A stretch of DNA of 64,000 nucleotides from Polyangiales bacterium (GCA_038231275.1 JBBRLQ010000005.1:160001-224000), one strand, 5' to 3'. Counted from the first letter of the stretch, positions 52,868 through 64,000 are shown. The notes: generated from the sequence alone by a model not told the origin. Made by a program: numbers and translations.

Positions 52868-55800
52868 GTGATCCCGCGCCTCACCGAGCTCCAGCCTGCG
52901 ACGGCGCAGACGCGCGCGTTCCTCGCCGAAATGAAGCGCGCGGGCTTCACCGGCGATCTCGCCGACGATCTTGCGACCCGCGTGGTCGGGGCGACGGACA
53001 ACTCGATCTACCAGATCCTGCCGCAGGCGATCCTCTACCCGAAGACGAAGGGCGACGTCGTCACGCTGATGCGCACCGCCGCGACCGCGCCGTTTCGCAC
53101 GCTCACGCTGACCGCGCGCGGCGGAGGGACCGGCACCAACGGGCAGTCGCTGACGTCGGGGCTGATCGTCGACGTCGGGCGTCACATGACGCGCATCCTG
53201 GGCCGCGACGGGGATCGCGTCGAGGTCGAGCCCGGCGTCGTCCTCGATCAGCTGAACGCTCATCTCGCGCCGGACGGCGTGTTCTTTGCGCCGAACCTCT
53301 CGCCGAGCTCACGCGCCACGCTCGGCGGGATGATCTCGACGGACGCGAGCGGTCAGGGATCGCGCGTCTACGGGAAGACCTCCCAGCACGTGGCGACGCT
53401 CGAGGTCGTGCTGATCGACGGCTCGGTCCTCGTGACGCGTCCGATGCGTCGCGACGAAGTCCTGGCGATGCCGGCGTGGGACACAGATGCGCCGCTCGCC
53501 GAGCGTTTGCCTCGCGCCGTCCTCGCGCTGGCCGAGAGGGTGCGGCCGGAGTTCGTCGCCAAGCTGCCGAGGCTCACGCGCTTCTTGACGGGCTACAACC
53601 TGGAGCGCGTGTGGGACCCGGAAGAAGGCACGCTCGATCTCAAGTGGCTCATCACCGGCGCCGAGGGCACGCTCGGCATCGTGACGAAAGCGTGGCTCGG
53701 CGTGGTGCCGATCCCCACCGCGCGACGTCTCGCCGTCCTCGAGTTCGGGAGCTTCGACGCGGCGCTCGCCTCGGCGGAAATCGTCCTCGCCCAGAACCCC
53801 TCGTCGATCGAGACCGTCGACGAGCGCGTCATGGATCTCGCGCGCGAGGACATCATCTTCCCCAGCGTCGCGGCTTATCTCCCGACGCGGCCGGCGCCTG
53901 CGCCGAAGACCGCGGCGATCAACCTGGTCGAGTTCGAGGGAATGGACACGGCCGACGTCGAGGGGAAGATGGCGTCGCTCGTTCGCGCATGCGACGCGCA
54001 CCGTGGCGAACCGGGCTGGCCCCTCGCCGTTTCGGTCGCCGCGAACGACGCGGATCGCAACGCGCTCTGGCAGCTTCGGGCGAAGGGCGTCGGGCTCTTG
54101 GGGAACACGAAGGGCCGGCGCAAACCGGTGCCTTTCGTCGAGGACACCGTCGTCCCTCCCGAGAAGCTCTCGAAGTACGTGGCGGAGTTCCGCGCCCTCC
54201 TCGACGCCGAGGGCTTGGTGTACGGGATGTTCGGTCACGTCGACGTCGGCTGCCTGCACGTGCGGCCCGCGCTCGATCTGCGCGATCCGGAAGACGAGGC
54301 GCGCGTGCGGCGGATCTCCGATCAGGTCGCGGCGCTGTGCACGAAGTACGGCGGCGTCATCTGGGGCGAGCACGGCAAGGGCTTTCGCTCCGAATACAGC
54401 CCACTCCACTTCGGCGATCTGTTCGTGCACATCGAGGCGACCAAGACGCTCTTCGATCCCGACCATCGGCTCAACCCCGGGAAGGTCGCGACGCCCACCG
54501 GCCAACGCCGGCACTTGGCGACGATCGAGCAGCCCACGCGTGGCCAACAGGATCGCCAGATCGAGCGGCGCGCCCAAGACACGTTCGCGCTCGCGATCGA
54601 CTGCAACGGCAACGGGCAGTGCTTCCACTGGGACCCCGACCACGTGATGTGCCCGTCGTCGAAGATCACGCGCGATCGGATCCACACCCCGAAGGGTCGC
54701 GCGGGCGTGATGCGCGAGTGGCTTCGCCAGCTCTCCAACGCGGGTGCTGGCCTCCCGCAGCGGCCGAGCGTGCTCGGGGCGCCGCTCCGGATCGTCCACA
54801 CGCTCGGCAAGGTTTTCGGCACGTTCGACTATTCGCACGAGGTCCACAGGGCGATGGAAGGGTGCCTGGCGTGCAAGGCGTGCGCGACGCAGTGCCCGGT
54901 GAAGGTCGACGTCCCTGCGTTCCGCAGCGAGTTCCTCGAGAGCTACCACTCGCGCTACCTCCGGCCTCTGCGCGATCACCTCGTGGCCGGCCTCGAAGGA
55001 GCCCTCGCCGCGATGTCACGCGCGCCGTGGTTCTTCAACTTTTTTCTCGGTTCGAAGATCTTCCAGCGCGTCTTCGGTGCGCTCACCGGCCTCGTCGACA
55101 CGCCGCTCCTCGCCCGTCGCGCCCTCACGAAAGAGCTCGAGGACCGGAAGATACCGATGCTCGGCCCCGCGTCACCACCGCCGTCGCCCGACAAACCGCG
55201 CGTCGTCCTCGTGCAAGACGCGTTCACGAGCTTCTACGAACCGGACCTCGTGCTCAAGGTGCGGGAGCTCCTCGATCGCCTCGGGTGCGACGTGCAGATC
55301 GCGCCCTACGTGCCGAACGGCAAAGGGCTCCACGTGAAAGGCTTCCTCCGCCGCTTCGAGAAGCAAGCGAGGCGCACCGCGGAGACCCTCAAGCAGCTCG
55401 CGGCCTCCGGCGCGACGCTCGTGTCGATCGAGCCGGCCGTCGGCCTGACGTACCGCGACGAGTACCGGCACGCGCTCGGCAAGGATCTCGGCTTCGAGGT
55501 CGTGCTCCTCCAAGAGCTCCTCGCGCGGATCGTCCCGAAGAAGGAGACGGCCGCGCCGACGGGCGAGCCATACCGTCTCTTCGGCCATTGCACCGAGAAG
55601 ACCCTGGCTCCGGCGTCGCAGCGACAGTGGGTCGAGGTCTTCGGTCGCGTTGGCCTACGCCTCGATCCGGTCGCGACGGGCTGCTGCGGAATGAGCGGTG
55701 CCTTCGGCCACGAGAGGATTCACCGCGAGGAGTCGAAGGGGATCTGGGATCTCTCGTGGGGGCGCTGGACCCGCGACGATCCCTCGCGCGTGCTCGCGAC

Positions 55801-55903
55801 AGGGTACTCGTGCCGCAGCCAAGCTCACCGCTTCGGCGCCTTCTCGCCGCGCCACCCGGCCGAGGTCCTCCTCGAGAGATTGGTCGAGATCCCGATCCCG
55901 TGA
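52868..55903 (+). CDS. ydiJ: FAD-binding and Fe-S-binding oxidoreductase (D-2-hydroxyglutarate dehydrogenase YdiJ-like)
   Basis: MIPRL...TDNSIYQILP, RGGGTGTNGQ, TDASGQGS, WGEHGKG, CNGNGQC, CLACKACATQCP, CCGMSG, TGYSCRSQ. Confidence 0.92.
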   Translation: MIPRLTELQPATAQTRAFLAEMKRAGFTGDLADDLATRVVGATDNSIYQILPQAILYPKTKGDVVTLMRTAATAPFRTLTLTARGGGTGTNGQSLTSGLIVDVGRHMTRILGRDGDRVEVEPGVVLDQLNAHLAPDGVFFAPNLSPSSRATLGGMISTDASGQGSRVYGKTSQHVATLEVVLIDGSVLVTRPMRRDEVLAMPAWDTDAPLAERLPRAVLALAERVRPEFVAKLPRLTRFLTGYNLERVWDPEEGTLDLKWLITGAEGTLGIVTKAWLGVVPIPTARRLAVLEFGSFDAALASAEIVLAQNPSSIETVDERVMDLAREDIIFPSVAAYLPTRPAPAPKTAAINLVEFEGMDTADVEGKMASLVRACDAHRGEPGWPLAVSVAANDADRNALWQLRAKGVGLLGNTKGRRKPVPFVEDTVVPPEKLSKYVAEFRALLDAEGLVYGMFGHVDVGCLHVRPALDLRDPEDEARVRRISDQVAALCTKYGGVIWGEHGKGFRSEYSPLHFGDLFVHIEATKTLFDPDHRLNPGKVATPTGQRRHLATIEQPTRGQQDRQIERRAQDTFALAIDCNGNGQCFHWDPDHVMCPSSKITRDRIHTPKGRAGVMREWLRQLSNAGAGLPQRPSVLGAPLRIVHTLGKVFGTFDYSHEVHRAMEGCLACKACATQCPVKVDVPAFRSEFLESYHSRYLRPLRDHLVAGLEGALAAMSRAPWFFNFFLGSKIFQRVFGALTGLVDTPLLARRALTKELEDRKIPMLGPASPPPSPDKPRVVLVQDAFTSFYEPDLVLKVRELLDRLGCDVQIAPYVPNGKGLHVKGFLRRFEKQARRTAETLKQLAASGATLVSIEPAVGLTYRDEYRHALGKDLGFEVVLLQELLARIVPKKETAAPTGEPYRLFGHCTEKTLAPASQRQWVEVFGRVGLRLDPVATGCCGMSGAFGHERIHREESKGIWDLSWGRWTRDDPSRVLATGYSCRSQAHRFGAFSPRHPAEVLLERLVEIPIP

Positions 55904-56067
55904 CTCGCGCTACGTCACGACGAGCGGGCTCCGCCGAGCACCGAGGCGCGTCGAATCGAGCAGCGAATCGAGCGTGTCCACGCGGTGAGGGTACCAGGTG
56001 ACGTGACGCCACGTGCCCTCACGCCGATGGCGGAGCAGCGACGACGCGGCTAGAATCGGCTCGATCG

Positions 56068-56973
56068 ATGGGGAAGCTGGAGGACGGTCTGCCCGAGCCC
56101 TTGCGCGCGCGCGTCGCGTCGGAGCCGGGGGCAGCGGAGAAGCTCGCCGCGGCGATCGAGCGGGCGAGCGCAGAGGTCCCGGAGATCCGCGTCGAGCCGG
56201 CAGCCCTCGCCGAGTACGTCCTCGCGCGCGCGCCGGAAGAGGGGTCGCTCGGCGCGCACCTCGACGGCGTTCGCGCGGGGGACCTCCTCCTCGCGGCGGC
56301 GTGCACGCGCGGCGATCCGGCGGCGTTCGCGCTGTTCGAGCAGCGCTACTTCGACGAGGTGCCGATCGCCTACTCGCGGTTTCGCACGACGACGACGCTC
56401 GATGAGCTCCGCCAGGCGCTACGCGACAAGCTGTTCGTGGCGGACGCGGGCGCGGCGCCCAAGATCGCGCTCTACACCGGCGCCGGCGAGCTGCGGCCGT
56501 GGTTCCGGGTCACCGTCGTTCGAATGCTCCTGAACCTCGTGACGCGCGCGCCGAAGGAGGTCGAGCTCAAGGACGCGATGGTCGAGGCCCTCCCCGGTAC
56601 CTTCGACGACGCGGAGCTCGCGCACACACGCGCGCTCTATGGAGGCGCGCTCACCGAGGCATTCGGTGAGGCGATCAAGAAGCTGGATCGGCGCGAGCGG
56701 TCGCTCCTTCGCTTTGCGGTATGCGACGGCCTGACGGTCGACGCGATCGGGAAGATCCACGGCGTTCATCGCGCGACCGCCGCCCGGTGGGTGCAGGCTG
56801 CCCGCGAGCGGCTCGAGCACGAGGTCCTGGACGCGGTGCGCGCGCGCATTCCCGCCGGCGACGACAGCCTCGCCAGCATCATGCGCCTGCTCGCCGGCGA
56901 GGTCGACGTCTCGCTCCGCGTTCACCTCGCCACGGGAAGCTCGAGCGCCGCCGGGACGCCGACCGGAGGCTGA
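56068..56973 (+). CDS. ECF-type sigma-70 factor, myxobacterial kinase-associated type with an N-terminal extension
   Basis: DLLLAAACTRGDPAAF, YTGAGELRPWFRVTVVR (region 2), LDRRERSLLR...GLTVDAIGKIHGVHRATAARW (region 4 HTH). Confidence 0.88.
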   Translation: MGKLEDGLPEPLRARVASEPGAAEKLAAAIERASAEVPEIRVEPAALAEYVLARAPEEGSLGAHLDGVRAGDLLLAAACTRGDPAAFALFEQRYFDEVPIAYSRFRTTTTLDELRQALRDKLFVADAGAAPKIALYTGAGELRPWFRVTVVRMLLNLVTRAPKEVELKDAMVEALPGTFDDAELAHTRALYGGALTEAFGEAIKKLDRRERSLLRFAVCDGLTVDAIGKIHGVHRATAARWVQAARERLEHEVLDAVRARIPAGDDSLASIMRLLAGEVDVSLRVHLATGSSSAAGTPTGG

Positions 56974-56988
56974 GCGTACGATTCCCAT

Positions 56989-57012
56989 GCGACGAAGGGA
57001 ATTTTGCGTGTC
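56989..57012 (+). promoter_or_regulatory. GCGACG-N12-CGTGTC motif, copy 1 (upstream of the kinase)
   Basis: GCGACG AAGGGAATTTTG CGTGTC, 18 nt before GTG 57031. Confidence 0.65.
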
Positions 57013-57030
57013 CGTCAGGAGAGGAGCCAC

Positions 57031-59940
57031 GTGAGCGCGTGTCCGAACGACGAGATCCTCTCGGCCTACGTCGAGCAGAAGGCGACCGATCGCGCCGCGA
57101 TCGAGGAGCACCTCGACGGGTGCAAGGCGTGCCGCGTCGTCGTCGGGCACCTCGCGGCCGTTGGCGTGATGGTGGACGAGCTGAAGGTCGATCCGGATCG
57201 CACGCACCAGACCGGGCCGACGGAGGACCTCGCCGCGACCGAGGCCGACGCGGCGCTGCTCTTCGGGCCGCCGCTTGCGCGTGGGACTCGCGTGGATCGC
57301 TACGTCGTCGATGGAGAGCTCGGTCGTGGCGGCATGGGCGTCGTCCTCCTCGCGCACGATCCTCAGCTCGCGCGGACGGTTGCGTTGAAGATCGTTCGCC
57401 CAGGGACCAGCGACGAGTCAGCGCGCGCGGGGCTACTGCGCGAGGCGCGGGCGATGGCGCGCTTGTCTCATCCCAACGTGGTGGCGATCCACGACGTCGG
57501 CGAGCTCGACGACGGGCGCGTCTTCCTCGCGATGGAGCACGTACGCGGGACGACGCTGCGACGCGCTCTCGCGGGCGAGGAGAGATCCAGCGCGCGGACG
57601 ATCGATCTCTTCCTCCAGGCGGGCAAGGGCCTCGCGGCCGCGCACGCGGTGGGGCTGATCCATCGAGATTTCAAGCCCGAAAACGTGCTCGTGGGCGACG
57701 ACGGGCGCGTGCGGGTGACGGACTTCGGCTTGGCCCGTGGCACGAGCGGGCCGGGTGTGCCGGCGTCGCTGCGCGGGGGCCACGACGCCGCCGTACCGCC
57801 GTCGGGCCTCACGCGCACGGGCGCGATTGTAGGGACACCGGCCTACATGGCGCCGGAGCAGACGCTCGGGCTCGCCGCCACACCCGCGACCGATCAGTTC
57901 GCGTTCGCCGTCGCGCTGTTCGAGGCGCTCACGGGCATGCGCCCCTTCGCGGGGACCACGTTCGAGGAGATCGCAAAGGCGAAGGTCGGCGGCGACCGGC
58001 GCGCGTGGCCGCCGAGTCCGATCGTCTCCCCGGAGCTCATGGCCATCGTCGACCGCGGTCTGGCGCGAGCGCCCGAGGAAAGGCACGCGTCGATGAACGC
58101 GCTCCTCGAGCTCCTCGAGCGCGCGCGTGAGAGCGCCCCGCGGTCAGGGCGGTCACGCGCCGTCGTCTCGCTCTTGGTCGTCGCCGTCGTCGCCGTCGTC
58201 GCCGTGATTGGCGCGGCGACGGTGCGCGCGCGCAGCGGTACGGCCGTCGTCGCTCCGAACGCGAGCGTCGCGTGCGTCGATGGTGCGCGCGCGATGACCG
58301 CGATCTGGGGTGACGTGAAGAGGAACGAGGTGCGCGCCGCGCTCTCGACGAAGACCGCCGCGCCGATCGCCGTCGACGAGACGCTCGCGACGCTCGATCG
58401 GCAAGCCCGCGAGTGGACGACGATGCACGACGCCTCGTGCGCCGCGACCCGTGACTCCACACAACCGGAGCCGGCCTTTCGTCTGCGCGCCGCGTGCCTC
58501 CGCCGCAGGTGGAACGAGCTGGTCGAGATGATCGACGTCCTCGCCCACGAGCCGCCCGATCCCGACGACGCGTTCGCGGGCGATCCGCTGGGCTCCGTGC
58601 GGGCATGCGCGGACCTACGAACGCTCGCCGCCACCGAGCCTCCGCCGCCAGACCCTGCCGAGCTCGCGCGCGTGGAGGACTTCTACGCGCGCATCGCACG
58701 GGCTCGGGCCATGTCGAAGGGAACGTGGGCGTCGATGAACGCGCTCGCCGCGGACGTCGCGCGCGTCAAGTGGTCGCCGGTGGTGGCCGAGCATGCCCTC
58801 CTCGGCGCCGAGCTCGCTGCGACGATCCCCATGGAGGAGGCGATCCGTTTGGCGGAGACGAGTCGCGACGACGAGCTGGTCGCGCGCGCGCGGCGGGCGT
58901 ACGCGCGGAAGCAAATCGTCGCCGGCACCGGGGCCTTCGTCGAGCTCTCCGGCGCGCTTGCTGCCGCGACGAAGCTGGAACGCCCCGATCTCCGCGCGGA
59001 CGTGCTGGAGCAGCGCGCCGTCGCCGAGAAGGATTTTGGACGCTTCGCCGCGGCGCTCGTGACGGCGACCGAAGCGCTCGCCCTTCGCGAAGGAGGCGCG
59101 GAGTCGCCGCGGAGGCCGCGTGCGCTCTGGATCGTCGACCTAACGCTCGTGCGAGCAGAGGCGGCGATCGAGCAGGGGGAGATCGGGACCGCGCGCGACG
59201 CGCTCCGCGTGCTCGAGCCGGTTCCGGACGACGCGGTGAAGGCGGCGCGGCTGGTCCTGGCAGGCCGTGTGGCCATCGCGGAGGGGCACGCCGACGCCGC
59301 GCGACCGCTGCTCGCCGAGGCGCGCACGCTCGCCGCGAACGTGGCGCACGCGGACCTCGTGAAGAGCAGCACCCGCGAGCGGCGCGCGTGGCGAATCGCC
59401 GAAGAGGCGCTCTTCGCGTCGATGTGGGCGATGGGGGTCGCGGAGCACGCGCTCGGCCGGCGCGACGAGGCGGAGCGGGCCCTTGTCGACACGCTCAACG
59501 CGCTCACGGAGCGGGGCTTCGGGCTGGCGCCGATCGTCCAGGCGCGCGCGGTGCTCCTCCTGAACCGGATCCAGCGCGGTAAGGTCCCCGCGCCGCGGGC
59601 GCTCGCGCGGGCGAAGCGCGCTTTCGAGCTCGTCGAGCCGTTGGAGCCCGCGCCGATCGCGGCGGAGGCGCTGATCGCGCTCGGCGAGGCGCTTGTCGGA
59701 ACCGGGGACGCGGCGGGCGCGATCGCGCGCCTCACGCACGCTGAGGTCCTCGCGCGCGACGCGCCGGTTTGGCTTCGTGTCGAGTGCGCCACCGCGTTGC
59801 TCGGCGCGTCGCGCGCGCGCGGCGCGGATCCGGCGGCGCTCCCGCGCGCGAACGAGATCGCGCGACGTGCGCTCGCCGACGCGAACGCCGATACGCCCGG
59901 CCGCGCCGCCCTCGAGGCTCTCCTCACGAGGCCGCCGTGA
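57031..59940 (+). CDS. Membrane Ser/Thr protein kinase with an N-terminal HxxxCxxC motif and a C-terminal TPR-like domain
   Basis: GAGGAG RBS; HLDGCKAC; GRGGMG, VALK, HRDFKPEN, DFG, GTPAYMAPE; TM AVVSLLVVAVVAVVAVIG. Confidence 0.93.
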   Translation: MSACPNDEILSAYVEQKATDRAAIEEHLDGCKACRVVVGHLAAVGVMVDELKVDPDRTHQTGPTEDLAATEADAALLFGPPLARGTRVDRYVVDGELGRGGMGVVLLAHDPQLARTVALKIVRPGTSDESARAGLLREARAMARLSHPNVVAIHDVGELDDGRVFLAMEHVRGTTLRRALAGEERSSARTIDLFLQAGKGLAAAHAVGLIHRDFKPENVLVGDDGRVRVTDFGLARGTSGPGVPASLRGGHDAAVPPSGLTRTGAIVGTPAYMAPEQTLGLAATPATDQFAFAVALFEALTGMRPFAGTTFEEIAKAKVGGDRRAWPPSPIVSPELMAIVDRGLARAPEERHASMNALLELLERARESAPRSGRSRAVVSLLVVAVVAVVAVIGAATVRARSGTAVVAPNASVACVDGARAMTAIWGDVKRNEVRAALSTKTAAPIAVDETLATLDRQAREWTTMHDASCAATRDSTQPEPAFRLRAACLRRRWNELVEMIDVLAHEPPDPDDAFAGDPLGSVRACADLRTLAATEPPPPDPAELARVEDFYARIARARAMSKGTWASMNALAADVARVKWSPVVAEHALLGAELAATIPMEEAIRLAETSRDDELVARARRAYARKQIVAGTGAFVELSGALAAATKLERPDLRADVLEQRAVAEKDFGRFAAALVTATEALALREGGAESPRRPRALWIVDLTLVRAEAAIEQGEIGTARDALRVLEPVPDDAVKAARLVLAGRVAIAEGHADAARPLLAEARTLAANVAHADLVKSSTRERRAWRIAEEALFASMWAMGVAEHALGRRDEAERALVDTLNALTERGFGLAPIVQARAVLLLNRIQRGKVPAPRALARAKRAFELVEPLEPAPIAAEALIALGEALVGTGDAAGAIARLTHAEVLARDAPVWLRVECATALLGASRARGADPAALPRANEIARRALADANADTPGRAALEALLTRPP

Positions 59941-60617
59941 GCGCGTGCGCTCGAGCGACGCTCGCCGTCGCGATCGCCCTCGTGCCGGCCGGATGCGCGC
60001 GAAGGACGCCCCTCGGAGCTGGCGCTGCCCTCGACGCGGGCGCAGATCCCGCGATCGGCCATTTTTCTCCCGTCGGACCCGCGAGCGCGTTCGCCCCGGC
60101 GCCTCCTCCGCCGTCGCTCGACGAGGAGGCGGCCTCACCGACGGCGGAAGAAGCCGCGCAGACACCGATGCCTCGCTTCGCGCCGATCGTCCCAAATCCG
60201 TCGATGCGGTCGAAGCTGCCATGCCCGCCGGGGACCACGCTCTCGGTCCTCGAGACGTCCATCGAGTGCCGGCTCATTCGCCCCAAAAACTTGTTCTTCG
60301 CGAGTGAGGGCCCCGCGCTCGCCTTTTACCCGAGCGGCAAGCTCGCCTCCCAGGGGCACCACTCCGCCGGCAAACCGGCGGGGCACTGGTGGTACTTCCG
60401 CGAGGACGGCACGCTCGACTACGAGGTGGACTTCGTGGACGGCGAATGGGACGGCGTCTACGTGCAGTACTGGCCGAGCGGCGCGCGTCACGAGGAGCAC
60501 CACGAGAAGGCCGGAGTCCACGAAGGGCCCGCCAAGATCTGGGACGAGCGCGGCCGGCTCCTCTCGTGGTCCCTGTACGCCGGCGATCACGTCGTGCGCA
60601 CGAAGTCGTTTCGGTGA
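59937..60617 (+). CDS. MORN-variant repeat (YwqK-like) lipoprotein
   Basis: GTGA overlap with the kinase stop; PAGC lipobox; FYPSGKL...YFREDGTL...YWPSGAR...WDERGRL repeats. Confidence 0.78.
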   Translation: MSACARATLAVAIALVPAGCARRTPLGAGAALDAGADPAIGHFSPVGPASAFAPAPPPPSLDEEAASPTAEEAAQTPMPRFAPIVPNPSMRSKLPCPPGTTLSVLETSIECRLIRPKNLFFASEGPALAFYPSGKLASQGHHSAGKPAGHWWYFREDGTLDYEVDFVDGEWDGVYVQYWPSGARHEEHHEKAGVHEGPAKIWDERGRLLSWSLYAGDHVVRTKSFR

Positions 60618-60669
60618 AGTGGAGCGAAGCGCAGCGGAGCAAAGCGCTCCTTGAGCGCGCGCGTCGAAA

Positions 60670-61404
60670 TCAGAAGCGCATGCCGCCGGTCGCGAACAGG
60701 CCGAAGGACGGATCGCCGCCCTTCGTCGCGATGACCAGCTTGGTGTCTCCGCCGACGTAGAAGCTCGATCGCGGGATCGCGTACGTGACGGTGCATCCCG
60801 GCCAGAACGCGAGCGACGTCGACGAGTCGCTCTGGCTCTGGTCGCCTTGGGAGAGCGTGATCATCGAGAGGATCAGCCCGACGCCCCCGTAGGGCCGGAT
60901 CACGACGGGCCCGAGCGGGAGCTCGTAGCCGACCTCGGCGCCGGTGTAGAGGAAGCGCGCGCTCGATCCGCTCTTGCCGCCGGGGCCGTCGCTCTCGTCG
61001 GACGTCCCGAGGTGGAAGACGAACGCCGCGCCGACGTAGAGGTGATTCTCGAACGTGTATCCGCCGCGCGCCCCCATGCCGAGCTTCAACGCGGCCGACG
61101 CGTAGCCGAGGACCGGCGCTACGCTGATCGGCTTCGGCGTCGCGTGCTCCGCGTCTTCGGTGGCGGGAGCGTCGGTCGCAGGGGCGCGCGCCGACGTCAC
61201 GCTCGTCGACGCGGCCTTCGTCTCCGGCTCGCGCTGCGCCTCTGCTTCACGCTCGGTCCGCGCGTCCGTGACGACGACGTCCGACTTCTTCGGCTTCGCC
61301 TCCGCCGCTGGCCGCTTCGAGCTCTTCTTCCCCGCGGCGTGCGCCGTCGGAGCCAAGAGCGCCAGGATCGCCACCACCAAGATGCCCGTCGTCGTGCTTT
61401 TCAT
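60670..61404 (-). CDS. Outer-membrane beta-barrel (8-strand OmpA/OmpW-like) with a low-complexity N-terminus
   Basis: GGAGG RBS, signal AHA|A, GARGGY, GAEVGYE, IRPYGGVG, C-terminal GGMRF. Confidence 0.8.
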   Translation of the reverse strand: MKSTTTGILVVAILALLAPTAHAAGKKSSKRPAAEAKPKKSDVVVTDARTEREAEAQREPETKAASTSVTSARAPATDAPATEDAEHATPKPISVAPVLGYASAALKLGMGARGGYTFENHLYVGAAFVFHLGTSDESDGPGGKSGSSARFLYTGAEVGYELPLGPVVIRPYGGVGLILSMITLSQGDQSQSDSSTSLAFWPGCTVTYAIPRSSFYVGGDTKLVIATKGGDPSFGLFATGGMRF

Positions 61405-61412
61405 GTCGTCCT

Positions 61413-61446
61413 CCGCCGACACGACACGGCGCCGCGCGTTCGTCGC
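61413..61446 (-). promoter_or_regulatory. GCGACG-N12-CGTGTC motif, copy 2 (upstream of the OM barrel gene)
   Basis: Minus strand reads GCGACG AACGCGCGGCGC CGTGTC GTGTCGGCGG. Confidence 0.65.
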
Positions 61447-61481
61447 GCGTCTGCGCGCCTCCGCGAGGTCGATTTATTTTT

Positions 61482-61515
61482 GCGACGCCCGGCGACGCCC
61501 GTGTCTTGTCGCCGG
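61482..61515 (+). promoter_or_regulatory. GCGACG-N12-CGTGTC motif, copy 3 (upstream of the lipoprotein gene)
   Basis: GCGACG CCCGGCGACGCC CGTGTC TTGTCGCCGG. Confidence 0.65.
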
Positions 61516-61552
61516 CCCCGCGAGAACCGCGAGCGGCCAGGAGGAGCTTCCC

Positions 61553-62479
61553 ATGAAAAAGTTTGGTCTTTTGGGCGTTGCGGTCGCGGGCGTGATGGCC
61601 GTGGGTGGGTGCAGCAGCACCAGCAGCAACGGCGGTGGCGTGGGCGGGACGAGCGTGCAGACGAGCGCGGCACGCGCGCGCTTCGCGGGAGGACCCACGG
61701 CGTCGTTCACCGCGGCGAACGGCTCACGCGCGCTCTCGGAGACGAAGCGGCAGCAGACGAGCGGCGCCGACGCGATGAAGAGCAACCCGATCGGCGGTGG
61801 GAGCGGCACCACGACGACCCGAGGCCTCGCGTTTCGTTCGCTCGGGATCCTCGACGTCGACGCCGGCGGCGGCGGCTCCAGCTCGCCGTCCTCGTGCGCG
61901 GACATCGCGGCAGGCAAAGACAAGGGCACCTGCGCGTGCACGGGCGGAGGCAGCCTCGCCTACGACGTCCCCAACCTGAAGGCGCTCACGTCGCAGGCGC
62001 AGGGCGGCGTGATGCCCGACGAGATCAGCATCTCGCTCACGTACCAGGCGTGCTCGATGGACGGGAAGGCGTACGGCGGCGCGATGTCGATGCTCATGAG
62101 CAAGAAGAGCGTCGTCAACGTCGGGACGCCCGTCCCGAGCGGCGTGCCGAGCGGCGCGGGCGGCGCGGGCGGGCTCAATATGCTCATCGTCGCCAACGAT
62201 CTCACCATCGACAGCCAGAAGCTCGACTTCGCCTTCGCGATGGAGGGCGGCGTCTTCTACTACGCGCCGAGCGTGGACGACAAAGGCGCCTTCGTCCTCA
62301 GCGAGCTCTCGTTCACCGGCGGCACGAAGATCCACGCGAAGAACGGCACGTTCGACTGCGCCACCGACGGCAGCGGCGCGCAGCAATGCACGAGCGACAC
62401 CGGCGAGACGATCCCCGTCGACCCCGGCACCGGCGGGGGCACCGTCCCCGCGGACGACGCCGGCCTCGGCGGAGACTGA
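61553..62479 (+). CDS. Hypothetical Gly-rich lipoprotein
   Basis: GGAGGAG RBS; MKKFGLLGVAVAGVMAVGGC lipobox; several Cys pairs. Confidence 0.82.
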   Translation: MKKFGLLGVAVAGVMAVGGCSSTSSNGGGVGGTSVQTSAARARFAGGPTASFTAANGSRALSETKRQQTSGADAMKSNPIGGGSGTTTTRGLAFRSLGILDVDAGGGGSSSPSSCADIAAGKDKGTCACTGGGSLAYDVPNLKALTSQAQGGVMPDEISISLTYQACSMDGKAYGGAMSMLMSKKSVVNVGTPVPSGVPSGAGGAGGLNMLIVANDLTIDSQKLDFAFAMEGGVFYYAPSVDDKGAFVLSELSFTGGTKIHAKNGTFDCATDGSGAQQCTSDTGETIPVDPGTGGGTVPADDAGLGGD

Positions 62480-62571
62480 CCGCAGAGGCGCCACCTCGCG
62501 CGCGCCGAAGAGAGAGCGAGAAACACGCCGACTGCGACGAGCCGTACCCACCCGCGAAGAGGAGTCGTTCC

Positions 62572-64000
62572 ATGCGCTTCATGATCCCCGTCCTCGCTGT
62601 CTTCCCGGTGTTCGCGCTGGCGGCGCCGGGTTGCAGCACCGGCATCGTCGACGATCCCACCGGCCAGGTCGCGGCCACCGTCGACGCGACCTCGCCGTTC
62701 GAACGCAAAGTCATGCTCCTCGTCGTCGATCCGGTCCTCTCGTCGCAGGGCGGACAGCGGCTCACCCAGTACAAGCGGTGGGACAGCCCCACGCCTGCCG
62801 CGCGCGCGCAGCAGCTCGTCGATTGGCTCCGCACGGCGAGCCGGGGGCGCGTCAATTACAAGGTCGTGGAGTCGAACACGAGCGACGCGCTCCCGCCGAA
62901 GGTCGGCGGCTTCATGTACGACGAGGCGACGTACCTCGCGGTGCTCGACGGTCGGGCGCAACACCACGAGCCGGACTGGGCCGACTACATGCCGCTCGTC
63001 ACCGCGTTCGACGTCTGCGGCAAAGCGAACCGCGGAGACATCGACGAGGTCTGGATGTTCGGTGGCCCGTGGATGGGGTTCTACGAGTCGCGCCTCGCGG
63101 GGCCGGGCGCCTTCGACATGAACGGCGCCGTTCTCCTCGGCACGACGTGCCGCCGCATCGTGCCCTTCATGGGGTTCTCGTACGAGGTCGGCCTCGCGAA
63201 CATGGTCCACGACTTCGGCCATCGCACCGAGAGGACGATGATGCACCTCTACGGCAGCTGGGACGAGGACAGCGTCGGCCACGCCTGGGACCGCTTCGGG
63301 CTCGACGTCGCGGAGTCACCGGGGATCGGCCTGAGCGGGTGCGGGCGGATCCATCGCCCCCCGAACTCCGGCGCGGCCGAGGGCATCTACGACAGCGCCG
63401 ACGTCGCGCGATCCTTCTGCGACGATTTTCTCCACTACCCGAACCTGCGCGCGCCCGCCGACGCGGCGGTCCCGATCACGTGCAGCGCATGGGGCTGCAG
63501 CGAGCTCGGCTACTACGCGTACTGGTTCGCGCACCTTCCGCACTTTTCGGGGATGGGGCCGGATGGAAAGGCGAACGATTGGTGGCCCTACATCGCAGAC
63601 TCCAGCACGGCGACCACCGCCGCGCCGCCCGCAGGCTGTCGAACCTTCGACGGCGACGAGCGCACGTGCAGCGCGCGCGCGGGGTGCGCGTTCTACCAAT
63701 GCTCACAGGCCTGCTACCCGCGCGGGACGTCGAACAACCTCGCGTGCGGCGCGCCGCCGCCCCCGTCGCCACCGAATCCTCAGCCCTCGCCGTCTCCAAC
63801 CCCTCCCGCTCCTCCATCGCCGCCGCCACCGCCGCCTCCGCCGGTGAGGTGCCGCGCTCACGACGGGAACGTGGGCGGCTGCGACGCGCAGTCCGGTTGC
63901 GCGTACTACGCGTGCTCGAGCCAGTGCTGGCCGACGGGCACACCGAACGCCACGGCGTGCCCCCCGGCCTGCCGCGCGAACGACGGCAACCTCGCCGCGT
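62572..64000 (+). CDS. Lipoprotein with a zincin-like domain (HDFGH), Pro linker and tandem Cys-rich modules; runs off the window end
   Basis: Manual translation from ATG 62572 (GAGGAG RBS), open to the end: MRFMIPVLAVFPVFALAAPGC...DEVWMFGGPWMGFYESRLAG...MVHDFGHRTE. Not in the ORF track. Confidence 0.82.
   Translation, partial: MRFMIPVLAVFPVFALAAPGCSTGIVDDPTGQVAATVDATSPFERKVMLLVVDPVLSSQGGQRLTQYKRWDSPTPAARAQQLVDWLRTASRGRVNYKVVESNTSDALPPKVGGFMYDEATYLAVLDGRAQHHEPDWADYMPLVTAFDVCGKANRGDIDEVWMFGGPWMGFYESRLAGPGAFDMNGAVLLGTTCRRIVPFMGFSYEVGLANMVHDFGHRTERTMMHLYGSWDEDSVGHAWDRFGLDVAESPGIGLSGCGRIHRPPNSGAAEGIYDSADVARSFCDDFLHYPNLRAPADAAVPITCSAWGCSELGYYAYWFAHLPHFSGMGPDGKANDWWPYIADSSTATTAAPPAGCRTFDGDERTCSARAGCAFYQCSQACYPRGTSNNLACGAPPPPSPPNPQPSPSPTPPAPPSPPPPPPPPVRCRAHDGNVGGCDAQSGCAYYACSSQCWPTGTPNATACPPACRANDGNLAA

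Follow-up and report, generated by a model that had tools for sequence, protein, structure and literature searches.

The stretch of DNA analysed here, 64,000 nucleotides from a Polyangiales bacterium (GCA_038231275.1 JBBRLQ010000005.1:160001-224000; the window in what follows), carries a sigma factor of the TIGR03001 family that resembles those of the extracytoplasmic function (ECF) type, followed by a Ser/Thr kinase and a cluster of predicted envelope proteins (Table 1). The identities that an initial annotation gave to the sigma, the kinase, the outer-membrane (OM) beta-barrel and the MORN lipoprotein agree with profile matches, in the last case weakly. The same annotation pointed to three intergenic copies of a bipartite motif, each directed into its gene, and a scan of the window finds them as described. 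As had been proposed for a local regulon, the motif is very probably the target promoter of the sigma encoded at 56068, since it changes in step with the residues by which the sigma reads DNA and recurs beside envelope genes; its de novo recovery from related loci adds to this. A wider reading, in which the promoter serves local envelope genes and the sigma is held inactive by a zinc anti-sigma-like (ZAS) domain of the kinase, we consider likely. The comparison covers motif position, conservation, register and co-variation, the recurrence of target homologues, and kinase architecture.

Table 1. Genes, domains and promoter elements of the sigma/kinase locus (window coordinates; TM, transmembrane helix; CDS, coding sequence)
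Feature	Position	Strand	Remarks
Motif copy 4	55120-55097	-	exact match; antisense within ydiJ-like CDS, ~1 kb before sigma
TAGAAT, housekeeping-type -10-like hexamer	56051..56056	+	11 nt before sigma start; also at L031
ECF-like sigma, TIGR03001 Sig-70_gmx1	56068..56973	+	301 aa; 187.3 bits vs cut-off 154.6
P1	56988..57013	+	TGCGAC-N16-GTC (TGTCC), before kinase
Motif copy 1	56989-57012	+	exact GCGACG-N12-CGTGTC; ends 18 nt before kinase start
ZAS - Ser/Thr kinase - TM - TPR-like receptor	57031..59940	+	969 aa
CHCC zinc anti-sigma-like (zf-HC2/ZAS) domain	57031..57198	+	ligands C4, H27, C31, C34
MORN-repeat lipoprotein, predicted	59937..60617	+	MORN_2 match weak
OM beta-barrel protein	60670..61404	-	OMP_b-brl profile match
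P2	61422..61447	-	CGCGAC-N16-GTC (TGTCG), before OM barrel; weakest of three
Motif copy 2	61446-61423	-	exact match; 18 nt before OM barrel start
P3	61481..61506	+	TGCGAC-N16-GTC (TGTCT), before lipoprotein; strongest of three
Motif copy 3	61482-61505	+	exact match; 47 nt before lipoprotein start
Predicted lipoprotein	61553..62479	+	no Pfam/NCBIfam match
Further predicted lipoprotein	62572..64000	+	no Pfam match; only TGCGAC half-site upstream

The exact motif is found four times in the window against 0.16 expected, and at least four copies were reached in 0 of 100 shuffles. Four of the ten exact copies in the whole genome fall inside 6.4 kb, and three of the ten are both intergenic and upstream of a gene, compared with 0-1 for spacers 8-16. 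The motif signal in this genome is local clustering, not a genome-wide excess. Copy 4 lacks the T at -36 and the T or C at -9; it is probably a chance occurrence. As the motif had been chosen post hoc, independent replication was sought in other genomes.

A contig search with the single sigma protein returned one locus only; in all, 157 loci were gathered, 154 of them with distinct sigma proteins. The window's sigma falls into a clade of eight (clade A; SH-aLRT 98), and the motif is present beside the sigmas of this clade: six of the eight loci carry GCGAC-N13-CGTGTC and a seventh has a near variant. In a second clade of four sigmas, GCTAC stands in place of GCGAC in all four. Five other clade genomes contain the exact motif 7-17 times each genome-wide, and in four of them copies lie no more than about 5 kb from the clade-A sigma (3/9, 2/17, 1/10 and 3/10, with one of the fourth genome's three inside a CDS); the fifth has no exact copy by its sigma and four near-variants there. 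Beside relatives' sigmas the motif often occurs as divergent pairs, and at the locus of an 85%-identical orthologue (L031) a further such pair precedes unrelated lipoprotein genes. The counterpart of P1 before this orthologue's kinase keeps both boxes, with spacer and flanks diverged. The extension TGTCGnCGG, which the initial annotation had added to the motif, does occur in both divergent copies of the window, but was rejected as a motif part, since none of the 14 non-coding sites examined beside close relatives in other genomes has it. At one locus (L092, G002:C219) the clade-A sigma is seemingly in two pieces, split by two lipoprotein-like genes that follow a motif copy, and the downstream kinase looks degenerate.

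For the boundaries of the two boxes, gapped pairs were counted de novo in the upstream regions of 138 loci that belong to neither of the two closest clades. The top pair, TGCGA-N18-GTCT, occurs at 16 loci against 0.6 expected, and GCGAC-N17-GTC[CT] at 27 of the 138 against 0-4 at other spacers between 8 and 25, although the loci are mutually related and such counts overstate their independence. Clade A has GCGAC-N16-GTC at seven of eight loci. Motif discovery on related sigma loci thus recovers a family form, TGCGAC-N16-18-(T/C)GTC(T/C), whose spacer of 16, 17 or 18 follows the sigma clade. It aligns with the boxes and geometry of the pan-ECF consensus, -36 TGTAAC and -13 CGTCT, for which 16-18-nt spacers are scored (Todor 2020 Table S1, PMC7776599; here and below, published work is cited from parts of the respective sources). 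Two boxes 16-18 nt apart and directed into a gene are what is found. The -35/-10-like character that the initial annotation saw in the motif is retained, and its 12-nt spacing was rejected as off-register, because the de novo pairs and spacer counts place a -35 TGCGAC, 16 nt and GTC; CGTGTC then reads as the -10 box preceded by a clade-specific CG. GCTAC promoters of paralogues stand at the G000:C6:70816, C3:406797, C8 and C3:512314 loci, with N16 at sigmas with an HKTT helix and N18 at those with an HRIT helix, a pairing that suggests insulation among paralogues. Other helix variants with TGCAA-type boxes nearby (L216, L218, L171, L181, L184) hint at more entries of such a code.

Scored with matrices trained on other genomes, P3 is the top non-coding site at spacer 16 or 17 (27.0 bits, family matrix) and the top site at spacer 16 (24.4 bits, clade matrix), and P1 ranks third in the genome at spacer 16 with 22.5 bits. 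When the own genome was held out, a site of at least 13 bits was found at 7 of 12 paralogue loci against 69 of 648 control windows (p 8e-5), and at 6 of 11 when the window locus was excluded (p 4e-4). The targets recur as well. Homologues of the 61553 lipoprotein stand directly behind the motif at L089 (36% identical) and L091 (29%), an OM barrel homologue (54%) lies in a same-strand run behind it at L089, and a homologue of the MORN protein (31%, E 9e-16) directly follows a copy at L088. They stand in a different gene order at these loci, and their position behind rearranged motif copies therefore supports regulon membership, including that of the gene behind the weak P2.

A second line of evidence connects the motif to the sigma protein itself. 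In other ECF sigmas the position of RpoE Asn84 has been experimentally verified to specify -13, and that of Gly168 is linked to -33 (Todor 2020, PMC7776599). With the -13 base excluded from site choice, the Asn84-equivalent was the best predictor of this base among 222 columns (mutual information 0.69, next 0.33): Asn goes with T in 25 of 29 cases, Asp with C in 13 of 16 and Arg with G in 5 of 6. The link holds in clusters at 50% identity (p 5e-4) and in path-disjoint pairs on the best tree (mostly 8:0, median p 0.008). For the Gly168-equivalent, Ala goes with G at -33 in 48 of 55 cases and Thr, Ile or Val with T in 8 of 10, a link that is suggestive only. By profile alignment the window's sigma has Asn156 and Ala236 at these two positions.

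How far does the regulon reach? Of 59 strong sites, 45 face a gene on the same strand, ten one on the opposite strand and four none. Of the same-strand targets 36 are predicted to be exported, and 26 are lipoprotein-like against 105 of 783 other neighbours by a crude classifier. Strong non-coding sites are few, and most have a TIGR03001 sigma no further than about 5 kb away, so that a broad genome-wide regulon was not found; the regulon appears small, local and made up of envelope proteins. Possible distal targets include a strong N17 orphan site at G000:C1:685049 (+), which scores 26.2 bits, precedes the kinase gene of a chemosensory-like cluster by 100 nt and lies on a contig with no TIGR03001 sigma, and intergenic GC[G/T]AC-N13-CGTGTC variants away from sigmas at G000:C3:501435, C4:220272, C47:14108 and C52:29902. 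Gene, lipoprotein and ZAS/kinase counts come from our own hexamer model and regular expressions and are approximate.

Within the window, transcription is predicted to start near 57022, 61413 and 61515, about 10 nt past GTC; the first and second of these positions open onto a purine-rich, ribosome-binding-like run. The kinase gene runs 4 nt into the MORN lipoprotein gene, which makes co-transcription of both from P1 likely. On the + strand no terminator-like site lies between the 61553 and 62572 lipoprotein genes, and the latter is a possible read-through target of P3. An atlas search with the 61553 lipoprotein returned unnamed clusters only (0.89-0.90, low recognition). The sigma gene itself may be expressed differently. 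A sigma-70 promoter scan over 55800-62700 found none, and the TAGAAT hexamer is a predicted short-leader promoter: TANNVT occurs at most 20 nt before the called start of 46 of 124 family sigma genes against 122 of 815 neighbours, with a peak at 6-7 nt. Sigma and kinase genes are frequently divergent (50 of 83 loci), and together with the position of TANNVT this suggests leaderless housekeeping transcription. At several related loci the sigma gene belongs to a same-strand run with the motif at its head. Upstream, an FAD/Fe-S oxidoreductase at 52868-55903 (+) is close to D-2-hydroxyglutarate dehydrogenase YdiJ (1247 bits, under the cut-off of 1350) and does not recur beside the sigmas of the related loci examined. 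A short sequence (AGTGGAGCGAAGCGCAGCGGAGC...) is shared after gene stops by 60617-60660 of the window and by G000:C6 past its sigma stop; it is possibly a dispersed intergenic repeat.

The sigma belongs to a family of which this genome holds 12 paralogues; a close homologue (74% identical) bears the source label Labilithrix sp. The TIGR03001 profile aligns sigma2 through sigma4 with AlgU (E 5e-9) and RpoE, and the sigma4 domain PF08281 lies above cut-off while PF04539 (sigma3) is not reported, which fits an ECF (group 4) sigma. The top Foldseek matches of the sigma model are ECF sigmas with weak E-values, and for neither the sigma nor the ZAS model was there a match at E<=0.001. PF04542 (sigma2) is missing here and present in only 4 of 60 members. 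As Casas-Pastor 2021 required this domain for inclusion (PMC7826278), the window's sigma would not pass the filter, which is a likely reason why the literature searched (see below) does not describe the family. The recognition helix HRATAARW has Ala at the position of Arg171 and Arg at that of Ser172. Conserved helical extensions lie past sigma4 (window 56800-56970) and in the N-terminal ~70 aa before sigma2; the highly conserved Ser270 and Ser/Thr282 might serve for phosphorylation or docking.

The kinase carries an N-terminal domain that the initial annotation had missed. Its zinc-ligand pattern, C/H-xn-H-x3-C-x2-C, recurs in the family rows, which were selected by this pattern, with zf-HC2 matched in 54 of 60. 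Profile matches include RslA, DdvA (E 1.1e-5) and ChrR. The structural model (pLDDT 86.6) has three helices (7-14, 21-30, 32-52), and its five best fold matches are all anti-sigma domains, among them RslA (Z 6.5, rmsd 3.4, 53 aligned), RsiW (5.5, 2.1, 54) and ChrR (5.2, 1.9, 56). Behind it follow a kinase domain at aa 91-357 with VALK, HRD and DFG, a hydrophobic helix at ~aa 377-396 and a weak TPR_12 match. At 100 of 154 loci a kinase frame is found no more than about 3 kb away, and at 81 one with the CHCC domain; where both flanks extend for at least 2.5 kb (58 loci), the numbers are 48 and 39. Of 72 kinases, 67 have their catalytic motifs intact. Among the ~181 kinases of this genome 12 are ZAS-kinases, and nine of these are encoded next to a TIGR03001 sigma. 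Beside a tenth such sigma, and divergent from it, stands a ZAS gene of 54 aa with no fused kinase (G000:C8:79845-80009, +), which may be a split or truncated form. The fold model and these associations make it reasonably probable that the domain acts as an anti-sigma.

This architecture shares features with several described systems. In Myxococcus xanthus, DdvA likewise has a zinc anti-sigma domain of the CHCC type, a single TM helix and an extended TPR region in the periplasm, and the promoters of its partner DdvS (GTAA-n16-CGT) also occur in multiple copies limited to the neighbourhood (PMC11506125, PMC6061681). Unlike DdvA, a CHCC ZASD - TM - TPR-CHAT protein, the window's protein has a cytoplasmic kinase domain between ZAS and TM and no CHAT match reported by Pfam; its promoter is TGCGAC-N16-TGTC and its targets are lipoproteins and an OM barrel instead of CRISPR/CBASS. 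For Mycobacterium tuberculosis SigH-RshA and SigE-RseA, phosphorylation of the ZAS protein, with PknB as kinase, releases the sigma (PMC8999054). This is a model for the release proposed below, although the kinase is separate there and part of one polypeptide with the ZAS here. Escherichia coli RpoE and Pseudomonas aeruginosa AlgU align with the family profile, have a -10 TGTC with Asn at the 84 position and read -33 by the 168 position (PMC7776599); they differ from the window's sigma in its HRATAARW helix, its -35 TGCGAC and its N- and C-terminal helical extensions. ECF210, ECF216, ECF220 and ECF267, compared by their descriptions only, are likewise myxobacterial, some with kinases or zinc-finger anti-sigmas nearby, but are listed without a conserved promoter motif, and no ZAS-kinase fusion is described in the parts cited (PMC7826278). 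In line with the initial annotation, full-text searches of the openly searchable literature, with subscription papers mostly outside their scope, found no published promoter for the TIGR03001 family, and among the papers that broader searches listed none presents such a module in its title or the opening of its abstract. GCGAC, GCTAC and CGTGTC had 0 matches in part of the PMC7826278 supplement, and Datasets S1/S2 of Todor 2020 could hold the motif.

From these elements a circuit can be sketched. The housekeeping TAGAAT promoter would make the sigma, which the ZAS domain would sequester at the membrane. A signal at the periplasmic TPR-like region would activate the kinase, whose catalytic motifs are intact, and the sigma would be set free by phosphorylation, either of the ZAS linker or of the sigma itself. 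Free sigma would then fire P1 (kinase and MORN lipoprotein), P2 (OM barrel) and P3 (lipoprotein), while the paralogues of one genome would be insulated from each other by the -33 base, the -13 base and spacer length. That kinase activity is the release switch is a tentative proposal by analogy, with chances somewhat short of even. The circuit of the initial annotation keeps its target set; its loop, in which the kinase activates the sigma, is less likely, since the kinase carries an N-terminal ZAS domain and the link from sigma to kinase may therefore be negative feedback.

Several observations weigh against the promoter assignment or its extension to the kinase. A genome-wide scan shows no excess of the exact motif at spacer 12, whose 10 copies in the 9.28-Mb genome are a joint minimum over spacers 4-24 (counts of 10-38). 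Nor is the window enriched once a mismatch is tolerated (6 observed, 4.5 expected), and the short core is at chance level in it (16 observed, 17 expected). Five of the 12 paralogue loci in the own genome are without a strong site, and a site of at least 13 bits with GTC is found at only 61 of 154 family loci, in part because of numerous short contigs. As the 37 training sites of the matrix come from the same locus set, the count of 42/154 is partly circular. P2 is weak (16.7 bits with the matrix from other genomes, genome rank ~29). The link between Asn84-equivalent and -13 falls to p 0.095 at 45% clustering, and an independent-pairs test on well-supported branches had 1-2 pairs, short of any significance. 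For the -33 link there are three origins (p 0.25); it takes 7th place among 222 columns and drops to 6/8 vs 4/51 under another site choice, and at three new loci with a Thr/Ile helix, found by codon pattern in 401 genomes, a site of at least 11 bits was present in 0 of 3. Concerning the kinase, the fold Z-scores of the ZAS model are modest (5.0-6.5), three ZAS-kinases of the genome have no TIGR03001 neighbour and two TIGR03001 paralogues have no ZAS neighbour.

Which other explanations fit the same data? The best of them accepts the promoter and has an inactive sigma switched on by direct phosphorylation, with the ZAS domain as a mere docking site and P1 giving positive feedback. The precedent is ECF43 (EcfP-PknT, EcfK-PknS), where an ECF-like sigma likewise lies beside a single-pass membrane Hanks-type kinase and becomes active once a Thr, standing in sigma2.2 in place of an acidic residue, is phosphorylated (PMC8999054, PMC13147305). 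The catalytically intact kinases suit this view, and so do the absence from the window's sigma of the first Asp and final Glu of DxxDxxQE, with TTTT at 107-110, which also weighs against the main reading, and the conserved Ser/Thr of the C-terminal extension (S270 in 132/154; S282 S/T in 149/154). EcfK, moreover, retains one acidic residue and is phosphorylated nonetheless, also in the linker (PMC13147305). The sigma2.2 region itself speaks differently: in T110-L-D112-E113 the window's sigma has Asp-Glu at positions 3-4, where ECF43 has the phospho-Thr (QTTA/STTA), and its family is another one. The phospho-position of EcfP/EcfK is Asp here and Asp or Glu in 100 of 154 members (Ser in 5), 153 of 154 have an acidic residue at the position that follows, and sigma2.2 has no conserved Ser/Thr column. 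Kinase-linked ECF groups are also typically without anti-sigmas (PMC7826278), whereas a ZAS domain is usual here and once occurs without a kinase. Activation in the manner of ECF43, which would fit the kinase-to-sigma step of the initial annotation, is on balance unlikely.

Could a different ECF sigma or a transcription factor bind the motif, with the TIGR03001 sigma as a mere neighbour? The genome offers candidates, as 41 proteins match the family model, mostly other ECF-like ones; the sigma lacks the Pfam sigma2 match, as all but 4 of 60 members do, and no motif copy stands directly before its gene in the window. But the motif follows the sigma family through rearrangements, -13 co-varies best with the sigma's own Asn84-equivalent, and spacer and -33 base follow sigma clades, all of which makes this very improbable. 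That the three copies are chance in GC-rich DNA, picked afterwards, can appeal to the chance-level counts above and to copy 4 inside a CDS, but is largely refuted by replication at other genomes' loci, de novo recovery and spacer controls and is hardly credible, although P2 alone could be such a case.

We thus return to the sigma as the likely reader of the motif and the ZAS-kinase as the sigma's probable keeper. A replicated ECF-type promoter of an under-studied sigma family is very likely on sequence grounds, and a fused anti-sigma/kinase regulator is probable. More speculatively, at slightly worse than even chances, TIGR03001 might represent an unclassified, expanded myxobacterial module in which an anti-sigma, an active kinase that triggers release and a periplasmic sensor are fused in one membrane protein, with up to a dozen paralogues per genome kept apart by a code of -33 (set by one helix residue), -13 (set by the Asn84 position) and spacer (16/17/18) and each driving a neighbouring lipoprotein cassette. 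A testable promoter consensus is supplied for a family that has 12 copies in this genome and that for the most part would escape the standard ECF classification because of its Pfam filter. Many myxobacterial kinases whose target is unknown are thereby tied to a definite output, namely nearby envelope lipoproteins. The fused receptor, if true, would unite sequestration and phosphorylation, two known modes of ECF control, in one protein, and the series of paralogues that differ in -33, -13 and spacer offers candidates for orthogonal switches and a way of testing the ECF recognition code.

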